Positions 16,478 through 36,855 are shown, counted from the stretch's first letter. The stretch is DNA of 64,000 nt from Bacteroidota bacterium (GCA_947469885.1 CANIQT010000014.1:44305-108304), one strand, 5' to 3'. Notes: generated by a model not told the origin, from the sequence alone. Made by a program: numbers and translations.

Positions 16478-16491
16478 ATGATTTTGGTCAT
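16478..16491. promoter_or_regulatory. FNR/DNR-like palindrome aTGATtttgGTCAt upstream of the fasciclin gene
   Basis: TGAT-N4-GTCA palindrome centred about 43 nt upstream of a TAATTTTG -7 box (16514-16521). Confidence 0.4.
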
Positions 16492-16551
16492 AAAAATTTA
16501 TATAAAGAGATAGTAATTTTGGCAAATTATTAATCAAAAAAACTTACGATT

Positions 16552-17124
16552 ATGAAAAAGAAAAACTTTTATTTAATGACAGTTGGTATAGTATTATTGG
16601 CTGCATCATGCAATTCGGGCGATACTTCGCCTGCTACAACAACAGCGGAAACAACAAGTGCAAACGTTCCATTAACAGGACAATCAGGAGTGGCTGATGA
16701 TGTATCAGCAAAAAACATTGTTCAAACAGCAGTGGGAAGTAAAGACCACACCACACTGGTGGCTGCCGTAAAAGCTGCTGAATTAGTTGATGTATTGAGC
16801 AATACAGGACCATTTACTGTATTTGCTCCAACAAATGCTGCATTTGAAAAACTGCCGGCAGGAACTGTTGAAGGTTTGCTAAAACCTGAAAAGAAAGAAG
16901 ATTTGCAGGACATTTTGCAATATCACGTTTCGGTAGGAGTGTACCAGGCAGATGCTTTGCAAGATGGTCAAACACTAGGTCAGGTGAATGGTGGTAATAT
17001 TAAAATCACAAAAAAAGACGGAAAGATTATGGTGAATGGTACTGCCACTGTGCTTGCTTCAATTCAAACAAGCAATGGTGTTATTCATTTTATTGACGGT
17101 GTATTGCTTCCGCCTAAGCAATAG
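16552..17124 (+). CDS. Fasciclin (FAS1) domain lipoprotein
   Basis: 190 aa. Lipoprotein signal (LLAASCNS). HTTLVAAVKAAELVDVL and FTVFAPTNAAF are canonical FAS1 boxes. Confidence 0.85.
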   Translation: MKKKNFYLMTVGIVLLAASCNSGDTSPATTTAETTSANVPLTGQSGVADDVSAKNIVQTAVGSKDHTTLVAAVKAAELVDVLSNTGPFTVFAPTNAAFEKLPAGTVEGLLKPEKKEDLQDILQYHVSVGVYQADALQDGQTLGQVNGGNIKITKKDGKIMVNGTATVLASIQTSNGVIHFIDGVLLPPKQ

Positions 17125-17151
17125 TTTTGGTTTATAATTAGTATCTGAAAA

Positions 17152-17181
17152 AGCGTAAACATATTGTTTACGCTTTTTTTT
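17152..17181. terminator. Bidirectional rho-independent terminator between the fasciclin gene and the nos operon end
   Basis: Hairpin AGCGTAAACA-tatt-TGTTTACGCT flanked by an A-run and a T-run. Confidence 0.65.
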
Positions 17182-17217
17182 ATTAATAAATTTTATAAAA
17201 ATAAAACAGAAGAAAAG

Positions 17218-17589
17218 TCAGGGTATAAGTTTTATTTGCATCACCGTGGAGATACTTAATGCCCGCTGTTTAGCAAGTTCAGCATTAGGTCCTTCAAATA
17301 ATTCATCCACGGTTTGAATGAATAATCTTTCCCATTGCTCAAAATGTTCTTTTGTAAGTGGACTGATACGGCTGAGATGACGATGAATATTCATAGTATC
17401 ACCTGTATAACCACCTGTGTAGAATAACGCATTTCCCCAAAAACTATACATAACAGGCAAATGTTTCTCCCAGTTTACCTTTACAACATCATTAAAAATA
17501 TAACCAATTACGGAGTCTTCTTTTACTTTATCGTAAAACAAATTAATTAGCTGTTCAATATCTTCTCTGTTTAATAAATCTGTTTTCAT
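17218..17589 (-). CDS. Truncated hemoglobin (group II/III trHb-like globin), last gene of the nos operon
   Basis: 123 aa. Pattern FY...V..D..IGYIF ... GGYTG ... NIHRHL ... F..W consistent with a trHb fold. It lies 14 bp downstream of nosY. Confidence 0.55.
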   Translation of the reverse strand: MKTDLLNREDIEQLINLFYDKVKEDSVIGYIFNDVVKVNWEKHLPVMYSFWGNALFYTGGYTGDTMNIHRHLSRISPLTKEHFEQWERLFIQTVDELFEGPNAELAKQRALSISTVMQIKLIP

Positions 17590-17603
17590 TTTCTATTACT
17601 ATT

Positions 17604-18371
17604 TTACAAATCTTTTCTTTTAAATTTAGCTAGCGACAACTTAAGCGGAACGATTACCCATAATACTAAAACGGAAAGTGCGGTAACAAAACCAACATTG
17701 GTTCCGAAAAAATCCTTGAATACAGCTCCTGTATATCCCATCAATGCAGAAACATCCAACCTTAACAAAATAACAATACGGCTTAAGTCTATTGGATTGA
17801 AACCACTTATAACCATCATTGGCTTTTCGAGCGGATAGTCTGAAAATTGAAAAAGAAGAAATAAAATCAGACCGTCAAAAATTAAAGCAAAATACAACCA
17901 AAGAAGAATTGAAACACCTATCCCTTTAGCCTTGTCTCGCGAAGAAACCGCAGCAAGCAATGCAATGGCGACAAAAATAACTGAAAGTAATGAGCCAACA
18001 ATAGCCATTATCAAACCAGTTACAGTTGGTTCATATATCAGTAACGGAACACCTGCACCAATTAAAAATGCTAAGGAAAGCGATGCAGATAAACCATAAA
18101 ATAAACTCAGCCATATTTGCTTCCTCCGCAAAGGTTGACTTAGCAGTAATTCGATAAATTCAGAACTATTGTAAACATATATAGTTGAAAATATAATTGA
18201 AACTAATGGCACAATGAATAAAACTAAATTTAATAAACTTAATAATCCCTTGGCTGTATTATCCTCGAGGCTAAATACGCTGAAGGAAATAATGAATAAA
18301 ATAAAAGTATATGCTAATACAATTTTACTCCTCAGTATATCTATAACAACGTATTTAATTACCTTATTCAT
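17604..18371 (-). CDS. nosY: ABC-2 type permease NosY
   Basis: 255 aa, 6 TM helices, directly downstream of the nosF ATPase in the nos cluster. Confidence 0.75.
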   Translation of the reverse strand: MNKVIKYVVIDILRSKIVLAYTFILFIISFSVFSLEDNTAKGLLSLLNLVLFIVPLVSIIFSTIYVYNSSEFIELLLSQPLRRKQIWLSLFYGLSASLSLAFLIGAGVPLLIYEPTVTGLIMAIVGSLLSVIFVAIALLAAVSSRDKAKGIGVSILLWLYFALIFDGLILFLLFQFSDYPLEKPMMVISGFNPIDLSRIVILLRLDVSALMGYTGAVFKDFFGTNVGFVTALSVLVLWVIVPLKLSLAKFKRKDL

Positions 18372-19083
18372 TAATCAGTGTTTTGGCCATAACATTTGCA
18401 ATAGCTTTAGATAATTTTTGTTCACCTGTTTCAGTACGCAACACTTCAATATCTTTATGAAATATTAATTTCCCATCTTGAATGTATATAATTTGAGTTA
18501 CAATATCATCCAACTCGGAAAGCACATGAGAGGTAATAAGGACAAGTTTGCCTTTTTGTTTTTCTTTAATTATTTTTTCTCTTAAAATTTCAGCTGCAAG
18601 TGGATCAAGACCTGCGGTTGGCTCATCAAGTATTAGAACTTCAGCATTAAACAAAAAAGCGAATAAGGCAGAAACCTTTTGACGTGTTCCTCCTGACAAT
18701 GTTCGCATACGCTTGTCAAGCATTTTGTCTAATTGAAAACTATATAACAATTCTTCATCAATGTTATTTTTATTCTCCCTTCGAATATCTTTCATCATTT
18801 TTATGAGTTGGCCAATGGTCATATTATCAGGATAACGACCTATCTGAGGCATGTAACCAATTTGAGAACGGTACATCCAGTTTTTAGAAATAGTTTTATT
18901 GTTAAATAAAATATCTCCAGAGTCTGGCACTACCAAGCCAAGAATAGATTTAATAAATGTTGTTTTTTCGCTTCCGTTCGGACCAATCAATGCAATACAC
19001 TCACCTGCGTTGCAAGTGATATTTATTGAATCCAAAGCCACCAGCTTCCCAAAATGTTTTGAAATATTTTTTGCAATAATCAT
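18364..19083 (-). CDS. nosF: ABC transporter ATP-binding protein NosF
   Basis: 239 aa. Walker A (GPNGSEKTT), ABC signature (LSGGTRQK) and Walker B (LILDEPT). Confidence 0.85.
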   Translation of the reverse strand: MIIAKNISKHFGKLVALDSINITCNAGECIALIGPNGSEKTTFIKSILGLVVPDSGDILFNNKTISKNWMYRSQIGYMPQIGRYPDNMTIGQLIKMMKDIRRENKNNIDEELLYSFQLDKMLDKRMRTLSGGTRQKVSALFAFLFNAEVLILDEPTAGLDPLAAEILREKIIKEKQKGKLVLITSHVLSELDDIVTQIIYIQDGKLIFHKDIEVLRTETGEQKLSKAIANVMAKTLINE

Positions 19084-20324
19084 AAAGACAAAGATTTCAT
19101 TAAAGGAGTTTCATCTTTTAAATTTTCAGGGGTAAGTGTGGGGATTATTTTCTCTGTTTTATCCAGCAACGAAACCATGATACTTCTAAATAAAATCATC
19201 GCTGGCGGGTTTTGCTCAATTATTACAGAAAACATACTTATGGGACGATAGGGTACATCACCTATATTATCTTCATTGATATCGTACCCTTCATATTTAT
19301 CCCAATAATTACTGTTAAATGAATTAAGAACCAAAGTACCATTGGTGCCAACATCAAAGGTATTACCAAAAAAATTGTTTTTTGTAACAGTAACATCCAT
19401 ACAACTTGCCTGAATTTTTATAGCCCATCCGTTAGATTCAAATATATTTTTCTGCATTTCGCATCTGCTTGCACCTTCCATATATATTCCAACAGTATTT
19501 TTTCTGAACTTGTTATTTATTATGTAACTATCTGAAATTTCTTTTAACAGCAAACCAAAAGCGGCATCCCCCCAATTTTCTTCAAAGGTATTATTAAACA
19601 TTTTAACTCCTGTGGTAAACATCACTGCAACACCTGCACCGTTATTTCTGAAAAGATTTGTTATGTAGGAATCTTTATTGGAAAACATAAAATGCAAACC
19701 ATACCGAATATTATCCGTAGAAATATTTCTCCAGATAATTGAGTTTGTCACAAATTCAAAATATATACCGTCACGATGCCCCGAAACAGTGTTACCAATT
19801 ATTTGCATACTATCGCATTTCCAGCAATGAATTCCATTTCCAATTTCCTGTTCCTGTTTACCGTATGATCTAAGTTGATTGTTTTTAATTACACAGTTCT
19901 TTCCATTTTGAGTATAAATTCCAAAAAAAGTATCATCAATAATATTATCTGAAATCGTAACTTTATGTGCATCATAAATTTTTATTCCAGCCGGGTCAAT
20001 TAAAGTTCCGTAGCCTGAATGTTGAATTTTAAATCCTGAGAACGTAACAAAACTAGACTTAATGGAAACTACCTCATATTTGTGTTCTCCATCAAGCACC
20101 GGATAATTAATTCCAATCATTTTAATTGATTTATCGACAATTAGATTATGTTCAAAATAAATACCTGAATTAACTATTATTGTATCGCCATTTGAGGATT
20201 GGTGAATAGCCTTTTGTATGGAATGAATAGAAAATTGTTTGCCAACATTAATTTGTGTTGCATTAGAACCTTGATGGAAAAATAAAATTAAAAAGAATGA
20301 TATTAAGATGATGCGGAGACACAT
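19080..20324 (-). CDS. nosD: Nitrous oxide reductase maturation protein NosD (periplasmic parallel beta-helix copper-binding protein)
   Basis: 414 aa. N-terminal signal, repeated right-handed beta-helix-like NN/GI motifs, and position between nosL and nosF. Confidence 0.8.
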   Translation of the reverse strand: MCLRIILISFFLILFFHQGSNATQINVGKQFSIHSIQKAIHQSSNGDTIIVNSGIYFEHNLIVDKSIKMIGINYPVLDGEHKYEVVSIKSSFVTFSGFKIQHSGYGTLIDPAGIKIYDAHKVTISDNIIDDTFFGIYTQNGKNCVIKNNQLRSYGKQEQEIGNGIHCWKCDSMQIIGNTVSGHRDGIYFEFVTNSIIWRNISTDNIRYGLHFMFSNKDSYITNLFRNNGAGVAVMFTTGVKMFNNTFEENWGDAAFGLLLKEISDSYIINNKFRKNTVGIYMEGASRCEMQKNIFESNGWAIKIQASCMDVTVTKNNFFGNTFDVGTNGTLVLNSFNSNYWDKYEGYDINEDNIGDVPYRPISMFSVIIEQNPPAMILFRSIMVSLLDKTEKIIPTLTPENLKDETPLMKSLSL

Positions 20325-20333
20325 TTATGAATA

Positions 20334-21356
20334 TTAATTAATTAACTGATCCCATGTAACTGCTTGTCCCTTTAATTTTTCGGTGTATAATTTCAAACTA
20401 TCGTTACTAGAGTATGCTGCAATATTTCCACCCATTGGGCTTTTAAGTTCATCGCTCTTTAGCAAAAAAATGTTAGATTGAATAAATAACTGATGAGAGG
20501 AACAAAAATCTGTGAAATAAACATCTTTAATATCTGCTTTTTTCAAGTTACCTTCTTTAATATAAATCAACAAACAATTTATATCATCAAACTTAAATAC
20601 CTTTCCTTTATTAGTAATAGCTTCTGCTCCATATTTGATGTCACTTATTGTCATTTTACAAAACTGACAATTGTCAATTCCTATTTTTATTTGTTGAGGA
20701 GCAGAGGAGCAAGCTGAAATAAAAAGCAAAACAAAAAATAATACAGGAGTCATAGTCAACATATTATTTTTTTTGAATTTCCTGAATTTAAAAAAGTCAG
20801 CCAATGAACTAAATAACAAAACGGCACCTGCTTCTAAAAATATCCATCCACCAACATCCGGAACAGAGTATGCACCAAAATTAAGTAATTGTTTAAAGCC
20901 AATTAATGGTGGTTGATAAGCCATACCTGGAACAATAATGGCAGCTTCCGGATTAAGATTATGCCCATAATTATATTCCCATCTCCAAAAATCAACCATT
21001 GCAATAATACCAAAACAAACAAACAAAAAGCAAAGTATATACATTAGTTTTCTATTACCAATAATTCCAACGGCAACAAAAAACGCTGCAAAAAACATTA
21101 TGATATAGGGAAGAATTGCGAATTCAACAAAATCATCTTTTTGAAGTGTTTTCATTCCTATATAGTGATTAAGTCCATTAATTATATTCACGTTGCCCCC
21201 TAGTGTATGCGGATAGATAAGCAAACGTAAACCCTCCGGATACTGAGGTGCGTCCAAATCAATCCGCCACATGGGAACAAATAAAACCACTATAAGTAAT
21301 AAACCGGATAGAGACAAAATAATTCTAATCCAGTTTTGCATGGGATACTTTTTCAT
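20334..21356 (-). CDS. nosL: Fusion of a 5-TM membrane protein with a NosL-like copper chaperone domain
   Basis: 340 aa. The N-terminal 190 aa are polytopic membrane. An internal lipoprotein-like signal (MLTMTPVLFFVLLFISACSS) precedes a NosL-like C-terminal domain, in the same frame with no stop. Confidence 0.6.
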   Translation of the reverse strand: MKKYPMQNWIRIILSLSGLLLIVVLFVPMWRIDLDAPQYPEGLRLLIYPHTLGGNVNIINGLNHYIGMKTLQKDDFVEFAILPYIIMFFAAFFVAVGIIGNRKLMYILCFLFVCFGIIAMVDFWRWEYNYGHNLNPEAAIIVPGMAYQPPLIGFKQLLNFGAYSVPDVGGWIFLEAGAVLLFSSLADFFKFRKFKKNNMLTMTPVLFFVLLFISACSSAPQQIKIGIDNCQFCKMTISDIKYGAEAITNKGKVFKFDDINCLLIYIKEGNLKKADIKDVYFTDFCSSHQLFIQSNIFLLKSDELKSPMGGNIAAYSSNDSLKLYTEKLKGQAVTWDQLIN

Positions 21357-21424
21357 TTTACAAATTTAAGAGGAAATAAAAAAAGTGTGAGTTAAAGAAC
21401 ATTTTAACTCACACTTAGGGATAA

Positions 21425-23419
21425 TTATTTTTTATCGGAATTTTCAGCTGAAGCAATATTTTTTCCAGTACTGAACATTAAAGGAACATTGCTACCCGCA
21501 GGTGACACTCGCACATATCCTTGCATCTCCTGATGCAATGCACTGCAAAAATCCGTGCAATACATTGGTGAAATTCCAACTCTATCGGGAGTCCATTTAA
21601 GTGTTTGCGTTTCCCCTGGCATAATTAATAATTCTCCATTAGTTGCACCTTTGATTGCAAAACCATGAGGAACATCCCAATCCTGTTCAAGATTTGTAAC
21701 ATGAAAATAAACTTCATCACCAATTCTAATTCCTTCAATATTATCAGGAGTAAGGTGAGAACGAATAGCAGTCATATAAACATCTACTCTGTTTTTATCT
21801 CTAACCACCTTTGTTGTACCTTCTCCCATCGAAACATAAGGATTTTTGTTTTCATCAATTTTAAATATTTTAGTACAGTTGTTTTTAAGTAAATCCGCAG
21901 GGCAAATTTGAGCATAGTGAGGCTCTCCAATTGTTGGAAAATCTAAAATCATTTGCATTTTGTCACCACTGATATCAAACAATTGGGCACTTTGAGAAAG
22001 TTCAGGACCTGTAGGCAAATAACGGTCTTTGGTAATCTTATTATATGCAACCAAATATTTTCCGTTTGGAGTTTTTGTATCACCACCAGCAACACACAAA
22101 TGTCCAACAGAATAAAAAGTAGGAGCACGATCAACAACTTTTAAATCTTTGATATTCCATTTAACAACTTCAGATGAAACAAAAAAGGATGTATAAGCAT
22201 TTCCTTTATTATCAAATTCTGTATGAAGAGGTCCTAATCCTGGTTTTTTAACTTCACCGTATAATGCAGACTCATATTTAATTACTGGAATACCATCAAA
22301 ATCACCAGCATAATCCTTAGCAGCTATTGCTTTTTGTATTTTATCAAAGCTGAAAACTGGAATTATAGCAGCCAACTTACCACTACCAACAATATATTCT
22401 CCAGTAGGATTTACATCACAACCGTGAGGTGATTTAGGACAAGGAATAAAATAACACATGTCTTTCAACTCTTTCGAATCTAGAACAATAACTTCTGTCT
22501 TAATTTCTGATGTTGCTGAATGCGTTTTATCGCTATATGTATTATGAGCATATTTTGCGGCAACTTTTCTTCCTTTGCCTGCAGCGAGATATTCTTCTGC
22601 TTTTTTCCAATTCACAGCCATAATGAAATCTTTGTCTTTTTGCGAAGCATTTACTTCCAACAAAGTGTTAGCCTGTTCAGTATTATAACAGGAAAAGAAA
22701 AACCAACCATGAGAAACTCCCTTTCCAGCGCGACTTAAATCGAAGTTTACTCCCGGACATTGAATTTGAAAGGCAATATCCAATTTACCATCTTCTTTAC
22801 CAACACTAATAAAACTTAAATAACCTTTAAAGTTTTGTTTATAAGTATTAATTGGAACGTCACCATTTGCATCATCAGCAGGAACACTGAAACGGGTTCC
22901 AGCCACAACATATTCTGTGTTCTCTGTAATGAAAGGTGAAGAGTGATTTCCTGCACTGTTTGGCAACTCAATAATTTCTGCAGTTCGGAATGTTTTTAAA
23001 TCAATACGAGCAACACGTGGAGTATTGTTTGCATTACCAAATGCCCAACGACCATCATAATCTCCATTAGTCTTAGAAAGCTGAACGTGATGTAAATCAT
23101 CCCAAGGAACAAAACCATGAGAAGTATTTAACATTGGTTTAGTTTCTTCCGAAAAACCCCAGCCTTTTTCAGGGTCAACTGAAAACACAGGAATTACACG
23201 TAGCAAACGACCAGAAGGAAGACCGTAAGCGCTCATTTGTCCACTGAAGCCACCGCTGACAAAATTATAAAACTCATCATATTTGCCTGGTGCTACATAA
23301 GCTTTTGAAGCAGCATCACCACTTACTGCGTTACTTACACTTTTTGGTTTACAAGAATTGAACGAAAATGCCACTGCAATAGCAGTTAAACCAAGCATAC
23401 TAATTTTCAAATTTTTCAT
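21425..23419 (-). CDS. nosZ: Nitrous oxide reductase NosZ, clade II (Sec-dependent)
   Basis: 664 aa. CuA site CTDFCSALHQEM at the C-terminus and a beta-propeller N-domain. The Sec/lipoprotein-like signal (rather than Tat) is typical of clade II. Confidence 0.95.
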   Translation of the reverse strand: MKNLKISMLGLTAIAVAFSFNSCKPKSVSNAVSGDAASKAYVAPGKYDEFYNFVSGGFSGQMSAYGLPSGRLLRVIPVFSVDPEKGWGFSEETKPMLNTSHGFVPWDDLHHVQLSKTNGDYDGRWAFGNANNTPRVARIDLKTFRTAEIIELPNSAGNHSSPFITENTEYVVAGTRFSVPADDANGDVPINTYKQNFKGYLSFISVGKEDGKLDIAFQIQCPGVNFDLSRAGKGVSHGWFFFSCYNTEQANTLLEVNASQKDKDFIMAVNWKKAEEYLAAGKGRKVAAKYAHNTYSDKTHSATSEIKTEVIVLDSKELKDMCYFIPCPKSPHGCDVNPTGEYIVGSGKLAAIIPVFSFDKIQKAIAAKDYAGDFDGIPVIKYESALYGEVKKPGLGPLHTEFDNKGNAYTSFFVSSEVVKWNIKDLKVVDRAPTFYSVGHLCVAGGDTKTPNGKYLVAYNKITKDRYLPTGPELSQSAQLFDISGDKMQMILDFPTIGEPHYAQICPADLLKNNCTKIFKIDENKNPYVSMGEGTTKVVRDKNRVDVYMTAIRSHLTPDNIEGIRIGDEVYFHVTNLEQDWDVPHGFAIKGATNGELLIMPGETQTLKWTPDRVGISPMYCTDFCSALHQEMQGYVRVSPAGSNVPLMFSTGKNIASAENSDKK

Positions 23420-23455
23420 AACGTTTTTTTATTATTTAGTTTAGTTTATTATTTT

Positions 23456-23956
23456 TTATTTTACTCCATCATTTTTACGCATAAATTCTAATAATGCTCT
23501 AGCATCATCGTCAGTTAGACTCTGATTAGGCATCCTAACGAGACAAATTTCCAATTGAGCTTGAGCAGCAGGGTCTTTATTAATCATTTCATCTGTATTG
23601 GTAATAAAATTCATAATCCAAGCTGGCTGATGACGACTAGTAACACCTATCCAACCTGGACCAACTAATTTTTCTGTGGTTAATTTATGACAAGCAGAAC
23701 ATTTAACGTCAAATGTTTTACTTCCTGCATCAGCCATTGCCACATCTAATTTTTCACTCAGTGCAACGTCTTTAAACTTTCCTTCTCCTCTTTTAGGATC
23801 ATATTTTTCAACACCAACTGAGGAAGGAGATTCTGCACTTGAAGCAGATGAATTGGATGATGTTGCCGCTTGATTTCCTTCTGATGAGTCACCTCCACAG
23901 GCAACAATAAAAAGCCCAAATGAACTTAGAATACTTATTGCTAATAATTTTTTCAT
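23456..23956 (-). CDS. Lipoprotein c-type cytochrome of clade II nos clusters (electron donor to NosZ)
   Basis: 166 aa. Lipoprotein signal (LFIVACGG), a single CSACH heme c motif, first gene of the nos operon. Confidence 0.8.
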   Translation of the reverse strand: MKKLLAISILSSFGLFIVACGGDSSEGNQAATSSNSSASSAESPSSVGVEKYDPKRGEGKFKDVALSEKLDVAMADAGSKTFDVKCSACHKLTTEKLVGPGWIGVTSRHQPAWIMNFITNTDEMINKDPAAQAQLEICLVRMPNQSLTDDDARALLEFMRKNDGVK

Positions 23957-24024
23957 GGTTTATAGTTTAAGTTTATTTAATTTATTTACAGTGCAAAACT
24001 ACTCTGATTGCATAATTCAGATTT

Positions 24025-24038
24025 ATGATTACAATCAT
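24025..24038. promoter_or_regulatory. FNR/DNR-like box aTGATtacaATCAt upstream of the nos operon
   Basis: TGAT-N4-ATCA palindrome centred about 75 nt upstream of the cyt c start codon on the minus strand. Confidence 0.5.
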
Positions 24039-24157
24039 AAGAGGTTTATTTACCAAGATGATATTATTATATCAGAATTACAAAAGACCGCAAACCACAA
24101 CAAATTCAAGTATTTTGCAATATTTTTTATTCAAACAAAATAAAAAATAAATTTAAT

Positions 24158-24171
24158 ATGATATATATCAT
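24158..24171. promoter_or_regulatory. FNR/DNR-like box aTGATatatATCAt upstream of the Crp/Fnr regulator gene
   Basis: Perfect 14-bp palindrome TGAT-atat-ATCA centred 72 nt upstream of the regulator ATG. Confidence 0.5.
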
Positions 24172-24236
24172 ACTCAAAATCCGACAATTCTTTTTTTTAC
24201 ACTTTACCTTTGACCTAAATAATTTAGAACTTTATT

Positions 24237-24830: not shown

Positions 24831-24832
24831 TT

Positions 24833-27876: not shown

Positions 27877-27880
27877 TAAT

Positions 27881-29272
27881 ATGGAAAATTTTAAAACCAT
27901 TATTGAACCATTTAAAATAAAAATGGTCGAACCCATTCATCTCAGCACTGCCGAACAACGCAAAGAATATTTAAGAGAGGCGCACTACAACCCCTTTGCA
28001 TTGGATTCTGATAAAGTGATAATCGATTTTCTTACCGACAGCGGAACTTCTGCGATGAGTTCCAATCAATGGGCAGGAATGATGCAGGGTGACGAATCGT
28101 ATGCAGGAGCTAGTAGTTGGCATAAAATGAGGAACAGTATTTTTGATTTGACTGGACACGAATTCATATTGCCAACACATCAAGGCAGAGCTGCGGAGCG
28201 TATTTTGTATGGTTATCTCGGAGGGAAAGGAAAAACATTTATCAGCAATACACACTTTGATACCACACGTGCCAACATCGAATTTTCAGGTGCCGAAGCT
28301 ATTGATATACCTTGTGAAGAAATAAAGAACAATAAACATTTTTATCCATTTAAGGGAAATATGGATTTAATGAAATTGGAAAAACTAATTATAGAAAAAG
28401 GTCCCGAAAATATCGCAGCGGTAATTCTAACCGTTACTAACAATAGTGGTGGTGGGCAACCTGTAAGTATGGAAAATGCAAAATCCATTTCAATTATTTG
28501 TAAAAAATATAAGATAAATTATTTTCTCGATTGTTGCAGAGTTGCTGAAAATTCTTACTTCGTGAGGCACCGAGAAAAGGAATATGAACACAAAACCTAC
28601 CTAGAGATTGCACAGGAATTGTTTTCACTAACTGATGGTGCAATAATGAGTGCAAAAAAAGATGCCCTGGTTAACATGGGTGGATTTCTTTCTTTGAAAA
28701 ACAAAGAACTAGCTGATGCTTGTAAGAACTTACTGATTATCACAGAAGGATTTGCTACTTATGGTGGTCTTTCTGGACGTGACATGGAAGCAATAGCAAT
28801 TGGTTTGAAAGAGGTGTTCGAACCTGATTATTTACATTATCGCATAACAAGTACTACTTTTCTCGGTGATAAATTAAAAGCCATGGGAGTTCCATTAATT
28901 TATCCGATTGGCGGACATGCAGTATATATTGATGCGAAAGAGCTTTACAATCATATTCCAATTCATGAGTATCCAGGTCAGGCTTTGGTTTGTGAATTAT
29001 ATTTAACAGGAGGAATAAGAACTGTTGAAATTGGTTCGGTTATGTTTGGCAAATATGATGAAGACGGAAAATTAATCCCCGCCCCAATGGAATTAGTTCG
29101 TTTAGCAATTCCAAGAAGGGTGTATACTCAAAGCCACATAGAATATGTGATTGAAGTATTCGAAAAAATAATGCTGAATAGACATAAAGTAAGAGGACTA
29201 AAAATTACAGAAGAACCAAAGTTCTTAAGACATTTTACAGCTAAATTTGAAAATTTAACTGACATATTTTAA
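27881..29272 (+). CDS. tnaA: Tryptophanase / tyrosine phenol-lyase family beta-eliminating lyase (PLP-dependent)
   Basis: 463 aa. The N-terminus MENFKTIIEPFKIKMVEPI and the PLP-lysine region SAKKDALVNMGG are highly characteristic. It starts 5 bp after norB. Confidence 0.88.
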   Translation: MENFKTIIEPFKIKMVEPIHLSTAEQRKEYLREAHYNPFALDSDKVIIDFLTDSGTSAMSSNQWAGMMQGDESYAGASSWHKMRNSIFDLTGHEFILPTHQGRAAERILYGYLGGKGKTFISNTHFDTTRANIEFSGAEAIDIPCEEIKNNKHFYPFKGNMDLMKLEKLIIEKGPENIAAVILTVTNNSGGGQPVSMENAKSISIICKKYKINYFLDCCRVAENSYFVRHREKEYEHKTYLEIAQELFSLTDGAIMSAKKDALVNMGGFLSLKNKELADACKNLLIITEGFATYGGLSGRDMEAIAIGLKEVFEPDYLHYRITSTTFLGDKLKAMGVPLIYPIGGHAVYIDAKELYNHIPIHEYPGQALVCELYLTGGIRTVEIGSVMFGKYDEDGKLIPAPMELVRLAIPRRVYTQSHIEYVIEVFEKIMLNRHKVRGLKITEEPKFLRHFTAKFENLTDIF

Positions 29273-29295
29273 TAAATTTTGAAACCATAAATAAC

Positions 29296-30210
29296 ATGAA
29301 AAAACTACTATTTATAGCCGCAATCATTACTACAACCTCTGCCTTCAGTCAATGTGCCTGTTGCGCCGGATCTTTTACTGGAGCATCGAACGGAGATGCC
29401 AACAACGGTATTCTAACATTAAACGAAAAACAATTTGTCGTCGAAGCATATGCAGATTACAGAACTGTACAATCTGGGGAAGTAATTGAAGATGAGGAAA
29501 AGCTCTTACAAAGTATGTTTATTGGGTCCGTGGGGGCTCGATATGGAATAACCGATGAAATAACTATTTCTGGACTAATCCCTTATGTGCAGTTGCATAC
29601 CAGCAATGGAAATGATAAAGGGGTAGGCGATTTATCATTGCTCGGAACTTTTAGAATTCATAGTAAAAATAATTTCAGCATTGCTTTGCAAGAAGGCGTA
29701 GAGTTGCCCACCGGCATTCAAAAAAATTCTAATTTCGATAACACAACAGTCGTTATCGGCTCAGGTTCTTACGACCCCATCACAGGAATCATTATTTCCA
29801 AAAAGCTAAACAAATTTACTATTCGCCTAAATGTCCTTTATAAATTTACTACTCAGGGATTTCAACAAAATTATTACGGTAGTGTGGCTTCTCATAACGC
29901 TTCTGTTTTTTATAATCTCAAAACGGTGAACGCCTGCTATCCTACTGATAGTGTAGTAAACATACACTCCGATTTTGGATGCAATCTCTCACTCGGCTAT
30001 TATGGCGAATGGCTCGATAAAATTAAAGAAGATAATGTGGTGGATGAAAACTCGGGCTACTATGCAGCATTTGCAAACATAGGAACAATTCTTCTTTATA
30101 AAAAATGGAGTTTGCCTGTAACCATTTCTTTACCTATAATCTCACAAATGAACGGCTCCCAAAACAATCCGGGTTACAGATTGCGAATCGGAATAATTAA
30201 ATCTTTTTGA
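29296..30210 (+). CDS. Secreted hypothetical protein, probable outer-membrane beta-barrel (MetA/phenol-degradation-pathway-like transporter)
   Basis: 304 aa. Signal peptide, Cys-rich start (SQCACCAGS), alternating hydrophobic beta-strand pattern, C-terminal aromatic residue. Confidence 0.45.
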   Translation: MKKLLFIAAIITTTSAFSQCACCAGSFTGASNGDANNGILTLNEKQFVVEAYADYRTVQSGEVIEDEEKLLQSMFIGSVGARYGITDEITISGLIPYVQLHTSNGNDKGVGDLSLLGTFRIHSKNNFSIALQEGVELPTGIQKNSNFDNTTVVIGSGSYDPITGIIISKKLNKFTIRLNVLYKFTTQGFQQNYYGSVASHNASVFYNLKTVNACYPTDSVVNIHSDFGCNLSLGYYGEWLDKIKEDNVVDENSGYYAAFANIGTILLYKKWSLPVTISLPIISQMNGSQNNPGYRLRIGIIKSF

Positions 30211-30469
30211 GAAAAGAAAAAATACTAAAAATGTTACTTTACAGAAGCATTATTCAATGACAATTAATTTTCATTTAAACTCCTTTGAATTGGAAAAACA
30301 GAAGCACTTGAAGTTAAATAATATGATTTTAATCACATTTATTTTGTACAAAACGAATCACTGTTCATAAAACTTACTGAATGTTTACAACTGTAAATTT
30401 TTGCAGTATCTTCTCTTTATAACTTGCACTCAAAATTTATTCTTCATCTTACAATTAAAAAAAATCAGT

Positions 30470-33052
30470 ATGTCAATCCTCCACACACCTTCAAAAAAAG
30501 ACTATTCAAAGGTTACTTCTTATACCTATAATGAAGTGTTCGAAAAATGTTTGATTTATTTTCAGGGCGATGAACTGGCGGCATCCACATGGATAAATAA
30601 ATATGCAATGAAAAATAAGGAAGGAAAATATTTGGAACTCACTCCTGAAGACATGCACATTCGTATGGCAAAACAATTTGCCCGGAAAGAAAATGAGTAT
30701 AAGGAAAAAACGTATCTCAACGGGAGTTTAAAACTATTGTCTGATTACGGGCAGGAACGCACTCTGTTAAGTGAAGATAAAATACTTAACTACTTTCGAA
30801 ATTTTAAATATATCATTCCCCAAGGCAGTGTAATGTCTGCTTTGGGCAATCCTTTTATTATCGCATCTCTTTCTAATTGTATTGTATTACCTGAAATATA
30901 CGATTCCTATGGAGGAATATTTTACACCGATCAGCAAATGGCACAGTTGTTCAAAAGGCGGTGTGGAGTGGGGGTAGATATTTCTACGCTTCGTCCTGCA
31001 GGGAGTGATGTTTCCAATTCTGCCGGAACTACAACAGGTGCAGTGTCGTTCATGGAACGGTTTTCGAACACTACACGCGAAGTAGCACAAAACGGCAGAC
31101 GGGGTGCATTGATGATCACCATTGATATTGCTCACCCCGACATTGATAAGTTTATTACCATAAAACAAGATTTATCTAAAATAACAGGAGCTAATATTTC
31201 TGTGCGTTTGTCCGATGAGTTTATGAATGCGGTGAAAAACGATACAGATTATATGTTGCGTTTCCCAATTGATTCCCCTGCTCCAGAGTATTCAAAAACA
31301 TTAAAGGCACGCGATTTATGGAACACTATTATTAAGTGCGCCCACAACACTGCCGAGCCCGGATTAATTTTTTGGGACCGTCAGCATCATTATTCCACAT
31401 CCTCTGTTTACCCCGGTTTTAAAAATGTTTCCACCAATCCTTGTTCCGAAATAGCTATGCAGGGAGGGGACAGTTGTCGCTTAATTGCACTCAATCTTTT
31501 TAATTTTATTGATAAACCATTTACCAATGAAGCAACATTTGATTACAAAAAATTCTCTGAAACAACTTATGAAGCACAACGGCTGATGGATGATTTAGTA
31601 GATTTAGAACTTGAACATATAGAACGAATTATTTCGAAAATAAAATCAGATCCCGAGCCTGACTTTATTAAACAAGTAGAAAACGAAACATGGAAATTAC
31701 TTTACGATGCAGGGAAAAAAGGAAGAAGAACAGGACTAGGATTTACAGCATTGGCAGATGCCATGGCAGGTTTAGGTTTTAAGTTTGATTCGCCCGAAGC
31801 TCTTGCCGAAGTCGAAAAAATAATGAAAACAAAATGCGAAGCAGAATTCAACAGTTCGATTGATATGGCTATCGAGCGCGGAAAGTTTGAAGCATTTAAT
31901 CCTGAGATTGAAAATATCTCGGAGTTTATTCAGATGATGAAAATAGAATTCCCGGATGTATATAATAGAATGATGAAACACGGAAGAAGAAATATTTCAC
32001 TCAGCACAGTGGCACCTACAGGCACATTGAGTATGCTTGCACAGTCTTCTTCGGGAATAGAACCTGTGTTTTTACTTTCTTATAAAAGAAGAAAAAAAAT
32101 AAATCCTTTAGATAAAAATGTGCGTGTTGATTTTACCGATGCAAGTGGTGATTCGTGGCAGGAGTTTGAAGTATATCATCATAAATTAAAACGCTGGATG
32201 GAATTAACCGGAGAAAATAATAGTACTAAAAGCCCGTACAACGGCTCCACAGCAACCGAGATAGACTGGCTGAAACGAATAGAGTTACAATCCATTGTTC
32301 AGAAATATACCACACACTCCATCAGTTCTACCATCAATTTGCCAAACAATGTGAGTTTGGAGAAAGTTGGAGAAATATATTTGCAGGCTTGGGAGCAAGG
32401 ATTAAAAGGCATTACGGTGTATCGCGATGGTTCTCGTTCCGGAGTTTTAATTTCATCGAATGAGGAAAAGAAGCAAATCAAAACAAATGAAATTATTGAA
32501 TCGGTTGCTCCCAAACGCCCAGAAAAGCTTGAGGCTGAAATTATCCGCTTTATGAATCACGATGAAAAATGGATTGCATTTGTTGGAGTGCTGAACGGAA
32601 AGCCTTACGAAATATTTACAGGTAAATCAGAGGACTCCTTTGTAATTCCTTCGTGGGTGAATACAGGATGGATTATCAAAAACATTTCGAAAGATGATTT
32701 TCAAAAACGATATGATTTTCAGTACCTCGATAGAGATGGATACAAAGTTACAATAGAAGGACTTTCCCGCTCGTTTGATAAAGAGTACTGGAATTATGCA
32801 AAATTAATTTCAGGTGTGTTGCGTCATGGAATGCCTATTACTAGCGTTGTTGATTTAGTTGAAAATCTCAATCTATATAACGACAGAATAAATAATTGGA
32901 AAAATGGAGTCGGGCGATCGTTAAAAAAATTCATTCCTGATGGAACACAGGCGAAGGATAAAACATGCAGCAATTGTGGAGATGCAGATGGATTAATATA
33001 TGAAGAAGGTTGTTTGAAATGCAAGAGTTGCGGACACTCGAAATGCGGTTGA
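30470..33052 (+). CDS. nrdJ: Adenosylcobalamin-dependent ribonucleoside-diphosphate reductase (class II RNR, NrdJ)
   Basis: About 860 aa from the MSILHTP start (the ORF opens at 30401, but the Met at 30470 is more plausible). RNR barrel motifs and a C-terminal Zn-ribbon tail CSNCGDADG...CLKCKSCGH typical of class II. Confidence 0.88.
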   Translation: MSILHTPSKKDYSKVTSYTYNEVFEKCLIYFQGDELAASTWINKYAMKNKEGKYLELTPEDMHIRMAKQFARKENEYKEKTYLNGSLKLLSDYGQERTLLSEDKILNYFRNFKYIIPQGSVMSALGNPFIIASLSNCIVLPEIYDSYGGIFYTDQQMAQLFKRRCGVGVDISTLRPAGSDVSNSAGTTTGAVSFMERFSNTTREVAQNGRRGALMITIDIAHPDIDKFITIKQDLSKITGANISVRLSDEFMNAVKNDTDYMLRFPIDSPAPEYSKTLKARDLWNTIIKCAHNTAEPGLIFWDRQHHYSTSSVYPGFKNVSTNPCSEIAMQGGDSCRLIALNLFNFIDKPFTNEATFDYKKFSETTYEAQRLMDDLVDLELEHIERIISKIKSDPEPDFIKQVENETWKLLYDAGKKGRRTGLGFTALADAMAGLGFKFDSPEALAEVEKIMKTKCEAEFNSSIDMAIERGKFEAFNPEIENISEFIQMMKIEFPDVYNRMMKHGRRNISLSTVAPTGTLSMLAQSSSGIEPVFLLSYKRRKKINPLDKNVRVDFTDASGDSWQEFEVYHHKLKRWMELTGENNSTKSPYNGSTATEIDWLKRIELQSIVQKYTTHSISSTINLPNNVSLEKVGEIYLQAWEQGLKGITVYRDGSRSGVLISSNEEKKQIKTNEIIESVAPKRPEKLEAEIIRFMNHDEKWIAFVGVLNGKPYEIFTGKSEDSFVIPSWVNTGWIIKNISKDDFQKRYDFQYLDRDGYKVTIEGLSRSFDKEYWNYAKLISGVLRHGMPITSVVDLVENLNLYNDRINNWKNGVGRSLKKFIPDGTQAKDKTCSNCGDADGLIYEEGCLKCKSCGHSKCG

Positions 33053-33082: not shown

Positions 33083-34885
33083 CTATTCGAAACCGTATTT
33101 AAGTTTTATTTCAGTAATGTCATTTATAGCATTTTTTAATTCATTATTAAAGGCTTCCCAGTTAAGAATTAAGCCTTCTTTCAGATTTTGATAATAAACA
33201 ACTGCTTCTGAAATATTGTGAATAAAAGATTGATAATAGGTTTTTCCTTTACTGTCTTTTGTATCACCATTTCCCTGTATAAGTTCTTTTTTCAGATACT
33301 TAATATAAATTTTCATTTCAGCAATAAATACATGAGGACGTTGTTTGTTCGTAATTAAATCCTTTCTTCCATAAATGTGGTCCACCATTGTTTTTAAAGA
33401 AACTATCTGGGAAAAATTTGCGATGTTAGGACCGGGACAAATATTTACTGCATTCAGGTTTTTTAAAAATGGTTCATTATATCTGATGGAGGCTGCATTG
33501 CTAAGCCCTACACATAAACATTTTTTTGCAAGAACATCTTCCTTTTGTTTTTTATATTCTTCTTCCGGAAGATGAAGTGTTTTTAATTGTTCGAGTTTCA
33601 ACTTCTGGTACCTGCGAGAAGCAGTGCAAATGGGTTCAGTTGTAAATTCAGTGTTAAAACCCAAATGTTTTTCAGCACAAGGGCTGCCTGGTTTACCATC
33701 TTTTATTCGTTGAATTTTTTCTGCATCGGCTGTAGTTCCCTTTAAATAATAAAATTTAACTCCAAGAGGAGAATTATTGCTAAGTACCACATCTTTTTCG
33801 GTTGCATTTTTCAGGAGATTCAAGGTGTGCTCATCCACCGTAGTTGCTTCAGGAACTAACAAAAAAGGCGTTCCCCAACCAGTACTTGATATATCATAAT
33901 ATTCCAGAAGGAAATTTGCTTCTTCAGCTGTTCCTATTCCACCTTGCGCAGAAACTGCAATTGTAGGATAAAATGTAAAATCGAAACCAAGTTTTTTATT
34001 TATTGCCTGTTTATAAAGTTCAAAAATAGTTTCAGCTAATTCTTTTCTTTTGTTTTTAAATTCTTCAAGTATTGGTCCTAACAAATAACCATCAGTAGCA
34101 AAAGCATGTCCTCCGCAGTTCAATCCTGATTCGATTCGGAACTCAGATACCCATATTCCTTTTTTAGCTAAAAATTTTCCTTGTATCAATGCGGAGCGGT
34201 AATCGCTCACTTTTACAATTACTTTTTTATTGAATTCAAATTTTTCGTTTGGGTCAAAAGCATTAAATTTTTCGAGATACATAAACAATCTTGGATTCAA
34301 TCCTGCTGAAAAAACAATGGAGGAATTTGTTAAATCGCTTTTGAGATAACCACTCAATGCGGCAACAGCATCCGAGCCATCCACTATTGCATTTCCATTT
34401 GCATCACGATTTTCTCTATCGGTTTTCGTCATTATATTTACATCAATACTGCCGACAACAATTTGAGAGCGCAAATAAGTTTGTTTGATTGCTTTTTCAC
34501 TTTCATTGGCACAGTTCACCATTTCGTAATATAAAGTTTTTAACCGACTTTCGTCTGGGAGCATATCAAAATATTTAACAATTTCAGAACCCACTTCAAA
34601 TGATTCCGATTTTAGTTTTTCCATTTGTTGATGAACAATTGTGTTTACCAGATTCAAATAGTCTGTAATTCTTTTTGCTCTGTAATCAGGTTCCTGTCGG
34701 ATTATCGGGACGTAAGGTTTATTGATGAGAGGATAATAATGTTTGCGCATCATCTCCACTAGGCGATCTTCTATTATAGAAACTACTGATGTTATACCAA
34801 AACGTGCTACCTTGATTGGAGAGTCGATAGTATAACATAAACCCATTACAGGGATATGAAAATTGTGTACGTTGGTGTTTTTCAT
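33083..34885 (-). CDS. Hypothetical 600-aa protein with a weak FMN-dependent TIM-barrel (NMO/2-nitropropane dioxygenase-like) signature
   Basis: Long clean ORF. SAQGGIGTAEEA...GWGTPFLLVPEA resembles the GGI...GTRFL phosphate-binding tail of NMO-family enzymes. The remainder is unrecognised. Confidence 0.55.
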   Translation of the reverse strand: MKNTNVHNFHIPVMGLCYTIDSPIKVARFGITSVVSIIEDRLVEMMRKHYYPLINKPYVPIIRQEPDYRAKRITDYLNLVNTIVHQQMEKLKSESFEVGSEIVKYFDMLPDESRLKTLYYEMVNCANESEKAIKQTYLRSQIVVGSIDVNIMTKTDRENRDANGNAIVDGSDAVAALSGYLKSDLTNSSIVFSAGLNPRLFMYLEKFNAFDPNEKFEFNKKVIVKVSDYRSALIQGKFLAKKGIWVSEFRIESGLNCGGHAFATDGYLLGPILEEFKNKRKELAETIFELYKQAINKKLGFDFTFYPTIAVSAQGGIGTAEEANFLLEYYDISSTGWGTPFLLVPEATTVDEHTLNLLKNATEKDVVLSNNSPLGVKFYYLKGTTADAEKIQRIKDGKPGSPCAEKHLGFNTEFTTEPICTASRRYQKLKLEQLKTLHLPEEEYKKQKEDVLAKKCLCVGLSNAASIRYNEPFLKNLNAVNICPGPNIANFSQIVSLKTMVDHIYGRKDLITNKQRPHVFIAEMKIYIKYLKKELIQGNGDTKDSKGKTYYQSFIHNISEAVVYYQNLKEGLILNWEAFNNELKNAINDITEIKLKYGFE

Positions 34886-34937
34886 TTTTTTGATTTTGTT
34901 TAAGATACAAAGTGACTAAAAATAAAGGGAAGGAAAT

Positions 34938-34951
34938 ATGATTCTAATCAC
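34938..34951. promoter_or_regulatory. FNR/DNR-like box aTGATtctaATCAc in the divergent nadA / 600-aa gene promoter region
   Basis: TGAT-N4-ATCA palindrome, 57 nt upstream of the nadA ATG and 59 nt upstream of the 600-aa gene start. Confidence 0.4.
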
Positions 34952-35001
34952 ATAAAAATAATTTTATAAGTATCAATTTTGCATAAATTTTAAAATAAGT
35001 T

Positions 35002-35907
35002 ATGGCTGACAATAGAGATTTATTAAAACAAATTACAAAGCTGAAGAAAGAAAAAAACGCAATAATATTGGTGCATAATTATCAACGGCCTGAAATTTAT
35101 GAAGTAGCTGATTTTATAGGCGATTCGCTCGAGCTTTCTAGAAAAGCTGCCGAAACAGAGGCCCAAACCATTGTATTTTGCGGTGTTTCTTTTATGGCTG
35201 AAACAGCAAAAATATTGAGCCCAAACAAAAATGTTTTGTTGCCAAATTTAGAGGCGGGTTGTTCATTGGCAGATATGATAACTGCCGATCAGGTCAATTC
35301 TCTTAGAGCAAATTTTCCGGAAGCAGCTGTTGTGAGTTATGTGAACACGAATGCAGCTGTTAAAGCAGTTTCTGATATTTGCTGCACATCGGCAAATGCA
35401 GTGAAAATATTGAATTCATTGCCTAACGATGAAATAATTTTTTTGCCTGATAAAAATTTAGGGAGTTATGTTCAATCACATACATTGAAAAAAATTTATG
35501 TGTGGGATGGATATTGCTCTGTTCATCAGGATTTGAAAAAGCAGGATTTAATTTCATTTAAAAAAGAACATCCGCTTGCAAAAATAATTGCACACCCCGA
35601 ATGTAAAAAGGATGTGCTGGAAGTAGCAGATTTTGTTTGCGGTACAGGAGGGATGGCAAAATATGCAGAGAATAATGATAGTTCAGAGTTTATTGTTGTT
35701 ACCGAATGCGGAATGACAAACAAATTGAGGGATGATGTTCCTGAAAAACATTTTTATTCTTTCTGCAATCTTTGTTCGTTTATGAAGGCAACTACTTTGG
35801 AGATGGTTTTGAAATCATTACAGGAAAATAAACACCCCATTTATCTGCCGGAAGAAATAATGAATAAAGCACGAAATTCAATTACCCGAATGTTAGCATT
35901 AGCCTGA
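35002..35907 (+). CDS. nadA: Quinolinate synthase NadA
   Basis: 301 aa. ILVHNYQRPEI and FCGVSFMAETAKIL motifs and conserved Cys ligands. Confidence 0.93.
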   Translation: MADNRDLLKQITKLKKEKNAIILVHNYQRPEIYEVADFIGDSLELSRKAAETEAQTIVFCGVSFMAETAKILSPNKNVLLPNLEAGCSLADMITADQVNSLRANFPEAAVVSYVNTNAAVKAVSDICCTSANAVKILNSLPNDEIIFLPDKNLGSYVQSHTLKKIYVWDGYCSVHQDLKKQDLISFKKEHPLAKIIAHPECKKDVLEVADFVCGTGGMAKYAENNDSSEFIVVTECGMTNKLRDDVPEKHFYSFCNLCSFMKATTLEMVLKSLQENKHPIYLPEEIMNKARNSITRMLALA

Positions 35908-35914
35908 TTAATTT

Positions 35915-36703
35915 ATGAAAGTAGCAATAATAGGATGTGGAAATATTGGTTTCGAAATTGCAACCTTTATTAATAATTGTTCTGATTTTGAACTACATTC
36001 TTTAACCGATATTAATTTAGATAATATCGAGAAAATCACGAACAAACTCTCCCGGAAAATAAAAATAAGTAATCTGGAAACAGCTATAGTCGAATCCGAT
36101 TTGATTATAGAAGCTTCCAATAAAGAAGTGGTGAAAGAAATTCTTTTAGACAAAAATATTGATAGCAAAAATAAAAAACTGCTGGTAATGAGTACAGGCG
36201 GACTGATTGAGAATACAGGGCTATTATATAGAATAAAAAAGTGCAAAATTCATGTGCCTTCGGGTGCTATTGCCGGATTAGATGCCATCAGGGCAGTTGC
36301 AGGTCAAATTACTTTTCTCAGGTTGGTTACTACCAAGCCTCCGGAATCTTTATCCGGCTCACCTTACATTAATGCCAATTGTATAAAACTGGAATCGCTG
36401 AAAACGAAAACAACTATTTTTAAAGGAGAATTGAAGGAAGCAATTAATGGATTTCCGAAAAACATAAATATTGCAGCAAGTTTATTCCTTGCATCCAAAT
36501 TCGAAGATATCAGTATTGAAATTGTTGCCAATCCCAATACTAGGTTCAATACTCATAAAATTATTTGTAAAGGGAAATTTGGTGAATTGAATTGTAAAAT
36601 AATTAACCGTCCTAGCAGCAATCCTAAAACAAGTTACCTTGCAATATTGAGTGCTATTGGTGTGTTAAAAAATATGACGACAAACTTAAAGGTTGGATAT
36701 TGA
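35915..36703 (+). CDS. nadX: L-aspartate dehydrogenase NadX
   Basis: 262 aa. Rossmann GxGxIG start plus VPSGAIAGLD, TKPPESL, FPKNINIAAS and NPKTSYLAILSAIGVLKN blocks matching Thermotoga-type NadX. Directly follows nadA. Confidence 0.8.
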   Translation: MKVAIIGCGNIGFEIATFINNCSDFELHSLTDINLDNIEKITNKLSRKIKISNLETAIVESDLIIEASNKEVVKEILLDKNIDSKNKKLLVMSTGGLIENTGLLYRIKKCKIHVPSGAIAGLDAIRAVAGQITFLRLVTTKPPESLSGSPYINANCIKLESLKTKTTIFKGELKEAINGFPKNINIAASLFLASKFEDISIEIVANPNTRFNTHKIICKGKFGELNCKIINRPSSNPKTSYLAILSAIGVLKNMTTNLKVGY

Positions 36704-36841
36704 GATGGGTTGATTCCCTTTCACGTCAAATATACTAAACTGGAATTCAAAGAAAATACCCCAAGGATTCTCGATTAGTTTATTAGAAGGCTCCGATTAC
36801 TTTTGTTTTCCATTATATCCTCAAGTGAATTCTTTTCCTTT

Positions 36842-36855
36842 ATGATTGTTGTCAT
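36842..36855. promoter_or_regulatory. FNR/DNR-like box aTGATtgttGTCAt upstream of the desaturase gene
   Basis: TGAT-N4-GTCA palindrome centred about 44 nt upstream of a TATTTTTG -7 box (36880-36887). Confidence 0.4.

Follow-up and report, generated by a model that had tools for sequence, protein, structure and literature searches.

The 64,000-nt window examined here (GCA_947469885.1, CANIQT010000014.1:44305-108304; positions are counted from its first base) derives from the metagenome-assembled genome of an uncultured Bacteroidota bacterium. It encodes a 197-amino acid (aa) regulator of the Crp/FNR family (24237-24830, + strand; cNMP_binding and HTH_Crp_2 domains), which is located between a clade II nos cluster for nitrous oxide (N2O) reduction and a cluster that includes a nitric oxide (NO) reductase (NOR)-like gene. 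Seven copies of one 16-base palindrome lie within 16.4-36.9 kb, around the regulator gene, and connect the nos and nor-like promoters with those of a fasciclin lipoprotein gene, nadA-nadX and the 600-aa gene divergent from them, and a fatty-acid desaturase gene. This connection had been proposed in an initial annotation of the same DNA, and it is supported by the statistics of the boxes, by promoter geometry and by conservation across species.

The nos operon (17218-23956, - strand) comprises, based on Pfam matches, genes for a cytochrome c, nosZ, nosL, nosD, nosF and nosY, and a 123-aa globin-like gene. Its box (TATGATTGTAATCATA, 24024-24039, - strand; 21.6 bits with the weight matrix described below) is read towards the cytochrome c gene and nosZ, and is followed after 22 nt by the -7 element TAGTTTTG (23994-24001, - strand), giving a predicted box centre of -42.5. 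Upstream of the regulator gene there is a further box (TATGATATATATCATA, 24157-24172, + strand), and another (TATGACTACGGTCATG, 24832-24847, + strand) is found 2 nt past the regulator stop codon, from where it precedes by 22 nt the -7 element GTACTTTG (24870-24877, + strand) of a probable operon (24891-30210, + strand) for a 411-aa protein with 11 transmembrane segments, a cytochrome c, a COX1-family (NOR-like) subunit, a beta-eliminating lyase and a 304-aa protein.

Beyond the nos operon, the gene for a 190-aa lipoprotein with a fasciclin (FAS1) domain (16552-17124, + strand; Pfam Fasciclin, 7.9e-36; signal peptide with Cys) has box TATGATTTTGGTCATA (16477-16492, + strand; 19.5 bits) and, 21 nt further on, the -7 element TAATTTTG (16514-16521, + strand). 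On the far side of the nor-like operon, box TATGATTCTAATCACA (34937-34952; 19.7 bits) lies halfway along the 116 bp that separate the 600-aa gene (33083-34885, - strand; no Pfam, NCBIfam or PDB match) from the genes for quinolinate synthase (nadA; NadA, 7.3e-122) and a nadX-like aspartate dehydrogenase (Asp_DH_C, 4.5e-25) (together 35002-36703, + strand). This box is shared: the -7-like element of nadA-nadX (CAATTTTG, 34974-34981, + strand) and that of the 600-aa gene (TCACTTTG, 34908-34915, - strand) each lie 21 nt from it, such that its predicted centre is -41.5 for both divergent promoters. The desaturase gene (36910-37998, + strand; 362 aa; FA_desaturase, 5.6e-34) is preceded by box TATGATTGTTGTCATA (36841-36856, + strand; 17.0 bits) and, after 21 nt, by the -7 element TATTTTTG (36878-36885, + strand). 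The remaining box (TATGATTTTAATCACA, 30322-30337, + strand; 20.4 bits) lies 140 nt upstream of a gene for a class II, B12-dependent ribonucleotide reductase (30470-33052, + strand; NrdJ_Z, 473.9 bits, with the cut-off at 399.95). No RNA family of Rfam was matched anywhere in the window, and therefore no riboswitch explains the leader of approximately 140 nt of this gene. Elsewhere the window carries housekeeping genes that lack boxes.

The three boxes that the initial annotation had named are present as aTGATtttgGTCAt (16478-16491), aTGATtctaATCAc (34938-34951) and aTGATtgttGTCAt (36842-36855). A scan of the window for the core pattern TGAY-N4-RTCA identified 12 sites against 5.06 ± 2.27 expected, and a count of 12 was reached in none of 100 dinucleotide shuffles; the excess over chance that had been claimed is thus real, although the accompanying estimate of 1-2 expected sites in 64 kb was too low. 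Although coding sequence makes up 90.6% of the window, eight of the 12 core sites are intergenic. For the longer 16-mer, TATGAY-N4-RTCAYR, there are seven distinct sites (11 strand-matches) in the whole window against 0.16 expected, beginning at 16477, 24024, 24157, 24832, 30322, 34937 and 36841, and every one of them is intergenic. When the intergenic DNA alone (5.5 kb, 72% AT) was simulated with a Markov model, 0.0085 copies of the 16-mer were expected (seven observed) and 0.25 copies of the core (eight observed). Using a weight matrix trained only on related loci of other species, with the window excluded, the seven sites score 15.6-21.6 bits, and the next best match (13.7 bits) is inside a gene. 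The consensus of the box is TATGATT-N2-AATCATA, a 16-base palindrome of the form TATGAT-N4-ATCATA. The box has the TGAT-N4-ATCA core, and the base outside this core is A in 84% of the weight matrix, instead of the T of FNR boxes. When eight promoter regions were aligned, only the box and the TTTG of the -7 element were common to them, the flanks and spacers being unrelated; thus, the boxes are not parts of a dispersed repeat.

Transcription starts were inferred from -7 boxes of the Bacteroidetes type (TAnnTTTG), and box centres were computed from these. The -7 box of flavobacterial sigma-A promoters spans -12 to -5 (PMC9723704), and the distance from the end of the box to the -7 element is 21 nt at the fasciclin, nadA, 600-aa and desaturase genes, and 22 nt at cytochrome c-nosZ and the 411-aa/nor-like operon; the box centres therefore fall at -41.5 or -42.5. 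This is the canonical position of a class II Crp/FNR activator, it is found at these six promoters, and the same spacing recurs in relatives. The -7 boxes that the initial annotation had reported for the fasciclin and desaturase genes are among the elements given above and, like that of nadA, begin exactly 21 nt after the 16-mer. Its figure of six promoters is close: six promoters are at -41.5 or -42.5, but the boxes themselves number seven, and five of these serve the six promoters, as nadA and the 600-aa gene have one box between them. At the regulator gene, a 32-nt spacer separates the box from TACCTTTG (24205-24212), with a predicted centre of -52.5, which is one helical turn further upstream; based on this arrangement, the regulator gene is probably autoregulated.

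Homologs of the regulator number in the thousands and belong mostly to Chitinophagaceae-like Bacteroidota. From an alignment of 30 homologs we retrieved a comparison set of 80 loci from other species (1.15 Mb; regulator identity 53-71%), nearly all of which share the gene order fasciclin> 123aa< nosY< nosF< nosD< nosL< nosZ< cytc< regulator> 411aa>. These loci contain 133 sites of the strict 16-mer, 122 of them intergenic. A site is found directly downstream of the regulator gene (before the 411-aa gene) in 48 loci, approximately 96 nt upstream of it in 39, and before the fasciclin gene in 28. Among culturable relatives, Ferruginibacter sp. SUN106 (L080) has this architecture; Flavihumibacter profundi KCTC 62290 (L070) and Arcticibacter svalbardensis MN12-7 (L083) have the gene order without a strict 16-mer. 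In most of the 80 loci the regulator gene is flanked by boxes; in the relatives' regulator promoters the spacer is 43 nt and the box centre -63.5. Two loci (L040 and L058) have a second regulator homolog nearby. The 411-aa gene (24891-26126, + strand), always directly after the regulator gene, is the most consistently boxed target across species. Its product has 11-12 transmembrane segments and a His-rich motif (HLLHGHSHFAFAGW), has no Pfam match even at E ≤ 10, and belongs to no NCBIfam family; it may be NnrS-like.

Of the 47 loci long enough to cover this region, 43 have the fasciclin gene adjacent to the nos cluster at its distal end; protein identities are 55-83% across loci. Its promoter is boxed in 42 of 44 related loci, mostly with an unconserved 21-nt spacer followed by TAGnTTTA/G, and a score of 13 bits or more is reached by 28 of the 44 promoters, as against 22 of 308 unrelated genes. 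From the combination of synteny and boxed promoters, the fasciclin gene belongs to the nos cluster as a conserved member that shares its regulation, and its designation as a non-denitrification gene in the initial annotation is not really apt. The window protein matches PDB entry 2mxa (CupS), from which a CupS-like fasciclin fold is inferred.

For nadA-nadX, the box is in register in all three bacterial relatives with the closest NadX proteins (65-69% identity): two of them (L096 and L100) have AATGATTTTAATCATA followed by 21 nt and TAATTTTG before nadA, and the third (L098), with different gene neighbors, has ATTGACATCTGTCATG, again 21 nt, and TAATTTTG. L096 and L100 also retain the divergon with the gene of approximately 600 aa, for which there is a second, weaker box 21 nt from the -7 element; the CTTTGTATCTTA context of that element in the window is kept in L096. 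No box was found in L108, an archaeal-looking outgroup. After the 600-aa gene, L096 (1693-3054) and L100 (1701-3062) have a gene for a B12-binding radical SAM protein, which is absent from that place in the window. The 600-aa protein gave a single-sequence AlphaFold model with a predicted local distance difference test (pLDDT) score of 37, which is unusable.

The nadX-like protein (35915-36703, + strand) is matched by the NCBIfam aspartate dehydrogenase models below their cut-offs, and a scan of metagenomes for NadX returned one match, 37% identical and uninformative. Relatives with less than approximately 60% identity are, where named, mostly annotated as DPANN archaea (Woesearchaeota and Nanoarchaeota), and sequence relationships hint at horizontal transfer of the gene. 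A role of NadX as an O2-independent substitute for NadB is plausible. NadB can also take fumarate as electron acceptor and is thus not strictly O2-dependent; therefore, O2 avoidance is not required to explain a link to NAD synthesis.

Desaturase homologs are widespread in Chitinophagaceae (68-89% identity), and in four of six other species the promoter has the box or its core in register, followed by a TA-initiated -7 box: TATGATTAGCGTCATA + 21 nt + TACTTTTG in L106 (89% identity), AGTGATGTAAATCATA + 21 nt + TACTTTTA in L094 (79%), TATGACCATTATCATA + 21 nt + TAACTTTG in L091 (74%), and TCTGACGAAGGTCATT + 21 nt + TATTTTAC in L102 (73%). The chance of a core in this register is approximately 1e-4 per promoter. 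The genes next to the desaturase differ in every species and the spacers are unrelated, save that the first eight spacer bases of L106 are those of the window; thus, it is the site itself that is conserved at the desaturase gene and not the region.

The 197-aa protein is a member of the Crp/FNR superfamily by its Pfam domains, PF00027 (3e-19, residues 15-99) and PF13545 (3.3e-7, residues 135-189), both above cut-off, and it aligns over its full length to CRP structures (E = 2e-15), with a weaker match to the PDB structure of DNR (3dkw; E = 6e-8). No NCBIfam equivalog was matched at cut-off (the NCBIfam CRP model gave 64 bits against a cut-off of 266). Compared with E. coli FNR, the protein begins at about FNR residue 36-54 and thus does not have the N-terminal extension with C20, C23 and C29, and Met88 is aligned with FNR C122; C30 is the sole Cys conserved in at least 90% of the 30 homologs. 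As the Cys ligands of FNR are missing, the protein cannot sense O2 through an FNR-type [4Fe-4S] cluster. The ERSAW of E. coli CRP pairs with Y-AAC, such that there is no Arg82/Ser83 pair for binding the cAMP phosphate. On sequence grounds the protein is therefore neither FNR nor CRP, and not a demonstrable DNR ortholog; the model libraries used contain no equivalog for DNR or NnrR, and the gene content resembles that of DNR/NnrR regulons.

The recognition helix LRVETVIR is invariant in the 30 homologs, which have 57-71% overall identity to the window protein. VETVIR aligns with VETISR of FNR and RETVGR of CRP; the Glu and Arg, which read the TGAT core, are kept, FNR Ser212 is replaced by Ile, and CRP Arg180, which reads TGTGA, by Val, as in FNR. 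FNR/DNR-type recognition has an E-x-x-S-R helix that reads TTGAT-N4-ATCAA. In FNR, Ser212 reads the outer T of TTGAT, and the change of Ser to Ile fits a box in which the TGAT-N4-ATCA core is retained and the outer base is A. The cognate regulator of the boxes is most probably the protein encoded inside the window at 24237-24830.

The likeliest candidate for the signal of this regulator is NO, or else another cue of denitrification or hypoxia, rather than O2 via an FNR-type Fe-S cluster, or cAMP. This is suggested by the company of the gene, namely the nos, nor-like and globin-like genes of the window and, in relatives, genes for ScdA-hemerythrin (RIC/DnrN-type), hemerythrin and Usp proteins; dnrN belongs to the core of NO-responsive regulons (PMC1274295). 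In the related loci these additional genes, some of them weakly boxed, encode ScdA_N+hemerythrin (RIC/YtfE/DnrN-type), stand-alone hemerythrin, DUF2249-ScdA-hemerythrin and Usp proteins (L065, 11928-12653, 2996-3430 and 884-1708; L013, 1026-1976; L073, 1765-2238). Genes of these types are characteristic of NO or hypoxia stress, and none is encoded in the window.

We propose, with a probability of about 0.72, that the regulator encoded at this locus binds the 16-mer as a dimer, and activates six promoters from -41.5 or -42.5 and its own from -52.5. In this mechanism the seven palindromes would be operators of a homodimeric Crp/FNR-family factor, most probably the 197-aa protein, which would contact RNA polymerase as a class II activator at the six promoters. 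Once activated, the regulator would co-induce the genes for N2O and NO reduction, the fasciclin lipoprotein, quinolinate/NAD synthesis by NadA and the NadX-like protein, the 600-aa protein and the desaturase, and it would raise its own expression from the -52.5 site. Several observations weigh against this proposal. Two other homologs of the 600-aa gene that are located beside nos clusters (L051 and L065) lack a box, as do, in register, the desaturase genes of L093 and L104. The nos promoters of most relatives bear a hybrid half-site, TATGAY-N4-CGCATA. The box of the ribonucleotide reductase gene is outside the class II register and has no good -7 box in register: its centre would be at -21.5 from TTATTTTG, which starts 1 nt after the box, or at -78.5 from AATTTTTG, 58 nt away, both being weak -7 boxes. 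Finally, the window has several -7 boxes close to the consensus, and dependence on an activator is not evident from their sequence.

These last two points also bear on whether the boxes, as genuine Crp/FNR sites, could serve for repression at the desaturase gene, and perhaps at nadA and the ribonucleotide reductase gene, to keep O2-requiring or unneeded functions off during denitrification. A site at -49 to -34 extends into the stretch where the -33 element of Bacteroidetes promoters lies, the -7 boxes of the window desaturase (TATTTTTG) and fasciclin (TAATTTTG) genes have the full consensus and may not need an activator, the box abutting TTATTTTG is in a repressor-like position, and the desaturase needs O2. 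Yet the 21-nt spacing at these less expected targets matches that of the nos and nor-like promoters, which must be induced for N2O and NO respiration, and the -7 boxes of the relatives' fasciclin genes are weakened (TAGnTTTA), as is typical of activator-dependent promoters. Requirement for O2 also has a counter-precedent in yeast OLE1, an O2-dependent desaturase that is induced by hypoxia; induction of the desaturase as O2 grows scarce would compensate for the limiting substrate. The geometry common to the desaturase and nos/nor promoters therefore favors activation of the desaturase, and we regard repression as unlikely. Control of desA by Anr in Pseudomonas aeruginosa is not used as a precedent here, as the literature search returned no direct statement of it.

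Slightly less probable still is binding by a different Crp/FNR paralog encoded elsewhere, such as an Fe-S FNR, with the 197-aa protein reading only some of the boxes, or the hybrid TATGAY-N4-CGCATA. The TGAT-N4-ATCA core is that of FNR and DNR (PMC1274295), the targets in class II ribonucleotide reduction and NAD synthesis resemble a general anaerobiosis set, relatives have both palindromic and hybrid boxes, and L040 and L058 have a second regulator homolog nearby. Set against this is the position of the palindromic boxes, on either side of the regulator's own gene throughout most of the 80 loci, as well as the invariance of the recognition helix while the rest of the regulator drifts to 55-60% identity, and the outer A of the box, unlike FNR boxes, which matches the Ser-to-Ile change in the helix. 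Lastly, the intergenic DNA and the motif are both AT-rich, which could favor chance recurrence, and the boxes could be pieces of some mobile element or dispersed repeat; the excess of 16-mers over the simulated intergenic expectation, the unrelated flanks and spacers alongside a fixed -7 register, and the retention of the box at orthologous promoters across species with proteins 55-89% identical make either origin extremely improbable.

The hybrid box (TATGAYnnnACGCATA, in which one half-site is TATGCG) replaces the palindrome at the nos promoter in approximately 55 of 70 related loci (e.g., L051, 9644; L080; L065), where it is followed by 21 nt and then by the highly conserved TAATCTTG. It is also present at some fasciclin promoters (L039, L049, L057, L076 and L081). 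A search of the window found palindromic boxes only and no hybrid CGCATA boxes. Hybrid boxes could reflect graded affinity or a second factor.

Among the other genes of the two operons, the 123-aa gene (17218-17589, - strand), which is the last of the nos operon, has a weak Bac_globin match (E = 0.012) and a position conserved in related loci. The beta-eliminating lyase gene (27881-29272, + strand; tyrosine phenol-lyase/tryptophanase family) follows the NOR-like gene in the window after a 4-nt gap, and recurs beside the regulator/411-aa pair in L025, L045, L047, L048 and L065; in relatives it is duplicated and has its own weaker box (10.9-13.7 bits). The core sites at 6787, 20665, 23088 and 49115 are inside genes and without TA/TA flanks, and the core site at 52838 and a near-match at 52814 score less than 8 bits in a 1.1-kb non-coding gap; none of these is regarded as a regulon site. 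That gap (52420-53595) is free of open reading frames and contains, at 53153-53302, a near-perfect tandem array of a 42-nt unit (ATCAAAATCCTGTATTTTGAAACCATACGCCTGTATTTTCAA; 3.6 copies, 99% matches).

Functionally, the system described here would be an FNR/DNR-type regulon. New in it are the branch to which the regulator belongs, the variant form of the box, the combination of class II geometry with Bacteroidetes -7 promoters, and the list of targets (fasciclin as part of the nos cluster, nadA-nadX, the 600-aa gene and the desaturase). In Epsilonproteobacteria (Wolinella succinogenes), clade II nos genes are controlled by Nss-family regulators, also of Crp/FNR type, which adapt the system to nitrogen oxides. 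They resemble the present regulator in its proposed control of clade II nosZ and differ in phylum and promoter type, and we know of no described link between them and fasciclin, NAD synthesis or desaturase genes. The NO- or O2-responsive DNR/Anr (Pseudomonas) and NnrR-type regulons of denitrifiers likewise have a dimeric Crp/FNR factor beside denitrification genes and a TGAT-N4-ATCA palindrome near -41.5, and they share with the proposed system nos and nor targets and, in relatives of the window, a DnrN/ScdA-type di-iron protein. In contrast to those regulons, the flank here is A-TGAT instead of T-TGAT, the promoters have Bacteroidetes -7 elements (TAnnTTTG), and the regulon extends to the fasciclin lipoprotein, nadA-nadX and the desaturase. 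E. coli FNR has in common with the window protein the Val-Glu-Thr-x-x-Arg helix (VETISR against VETVIR), the core of the box and the -41.5 geometry, but it has the C20/C23/C29 extension, C122 and Ser212, which here are absent, Met and Ile, respectively. HcpR of Bacteroides and Porphyromonas (HcpR2 branch) is a Crp/FNR regulator of nitrosative stress from the same phylum and is encoded, as here, beside its target (PMC1274295). However, the HcpR2 regulon is essentially hcp only (PMC1274295), whereas no hcp was seen here and the targets are nos, nor-like and other genes. A full-text literature search found no regulator motif for clade II nos in Bacteroidota and no link between fasciclin and nos; this holds for the library searched and is not proof of absence.

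More tentatively, the 197-aa protein may found a Bacteroidota branch of Crp/FNR regulators with sensing unlike that of FNR, CRP or DNR (possibly of NO or N2O), and may be a master switch for N2O respiration in clade II reducers of the Chitinophagia type. The regulon may hold new accessory factors of clade II NosZ (the fasciclin lipoprotein, the His-rich membrane protein of 411 aa and the globin-like protein of 123 aa), and induction may follow an order of two tiers that is set by palindromic and hybrid boxes. We consider these extensions possible, yet doubtful at present.

The promoters described here offer a sequence-level case of class II-type architecture on the unusual -7/-33 promoter of Bacteroidetes. 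In soils and wastewater, Bacteroidota that carry clade II nosZ act as abundant sinks of N2O, and many of the relatives identified here come from activated sludge and lakes. For the induction of N2O reductase in these bacteria, the analysis provides a concrete putative operator (TATGATT-N2-AATCATA, centred at -41.5), together with a candidate regulator and a list of targets that is conserved. The programme under this putative control would extend past respiration and take in NAD synthesis, the desaturation of membrane lipids and a fasciclin lipoprotein whose gene accompanies nos.

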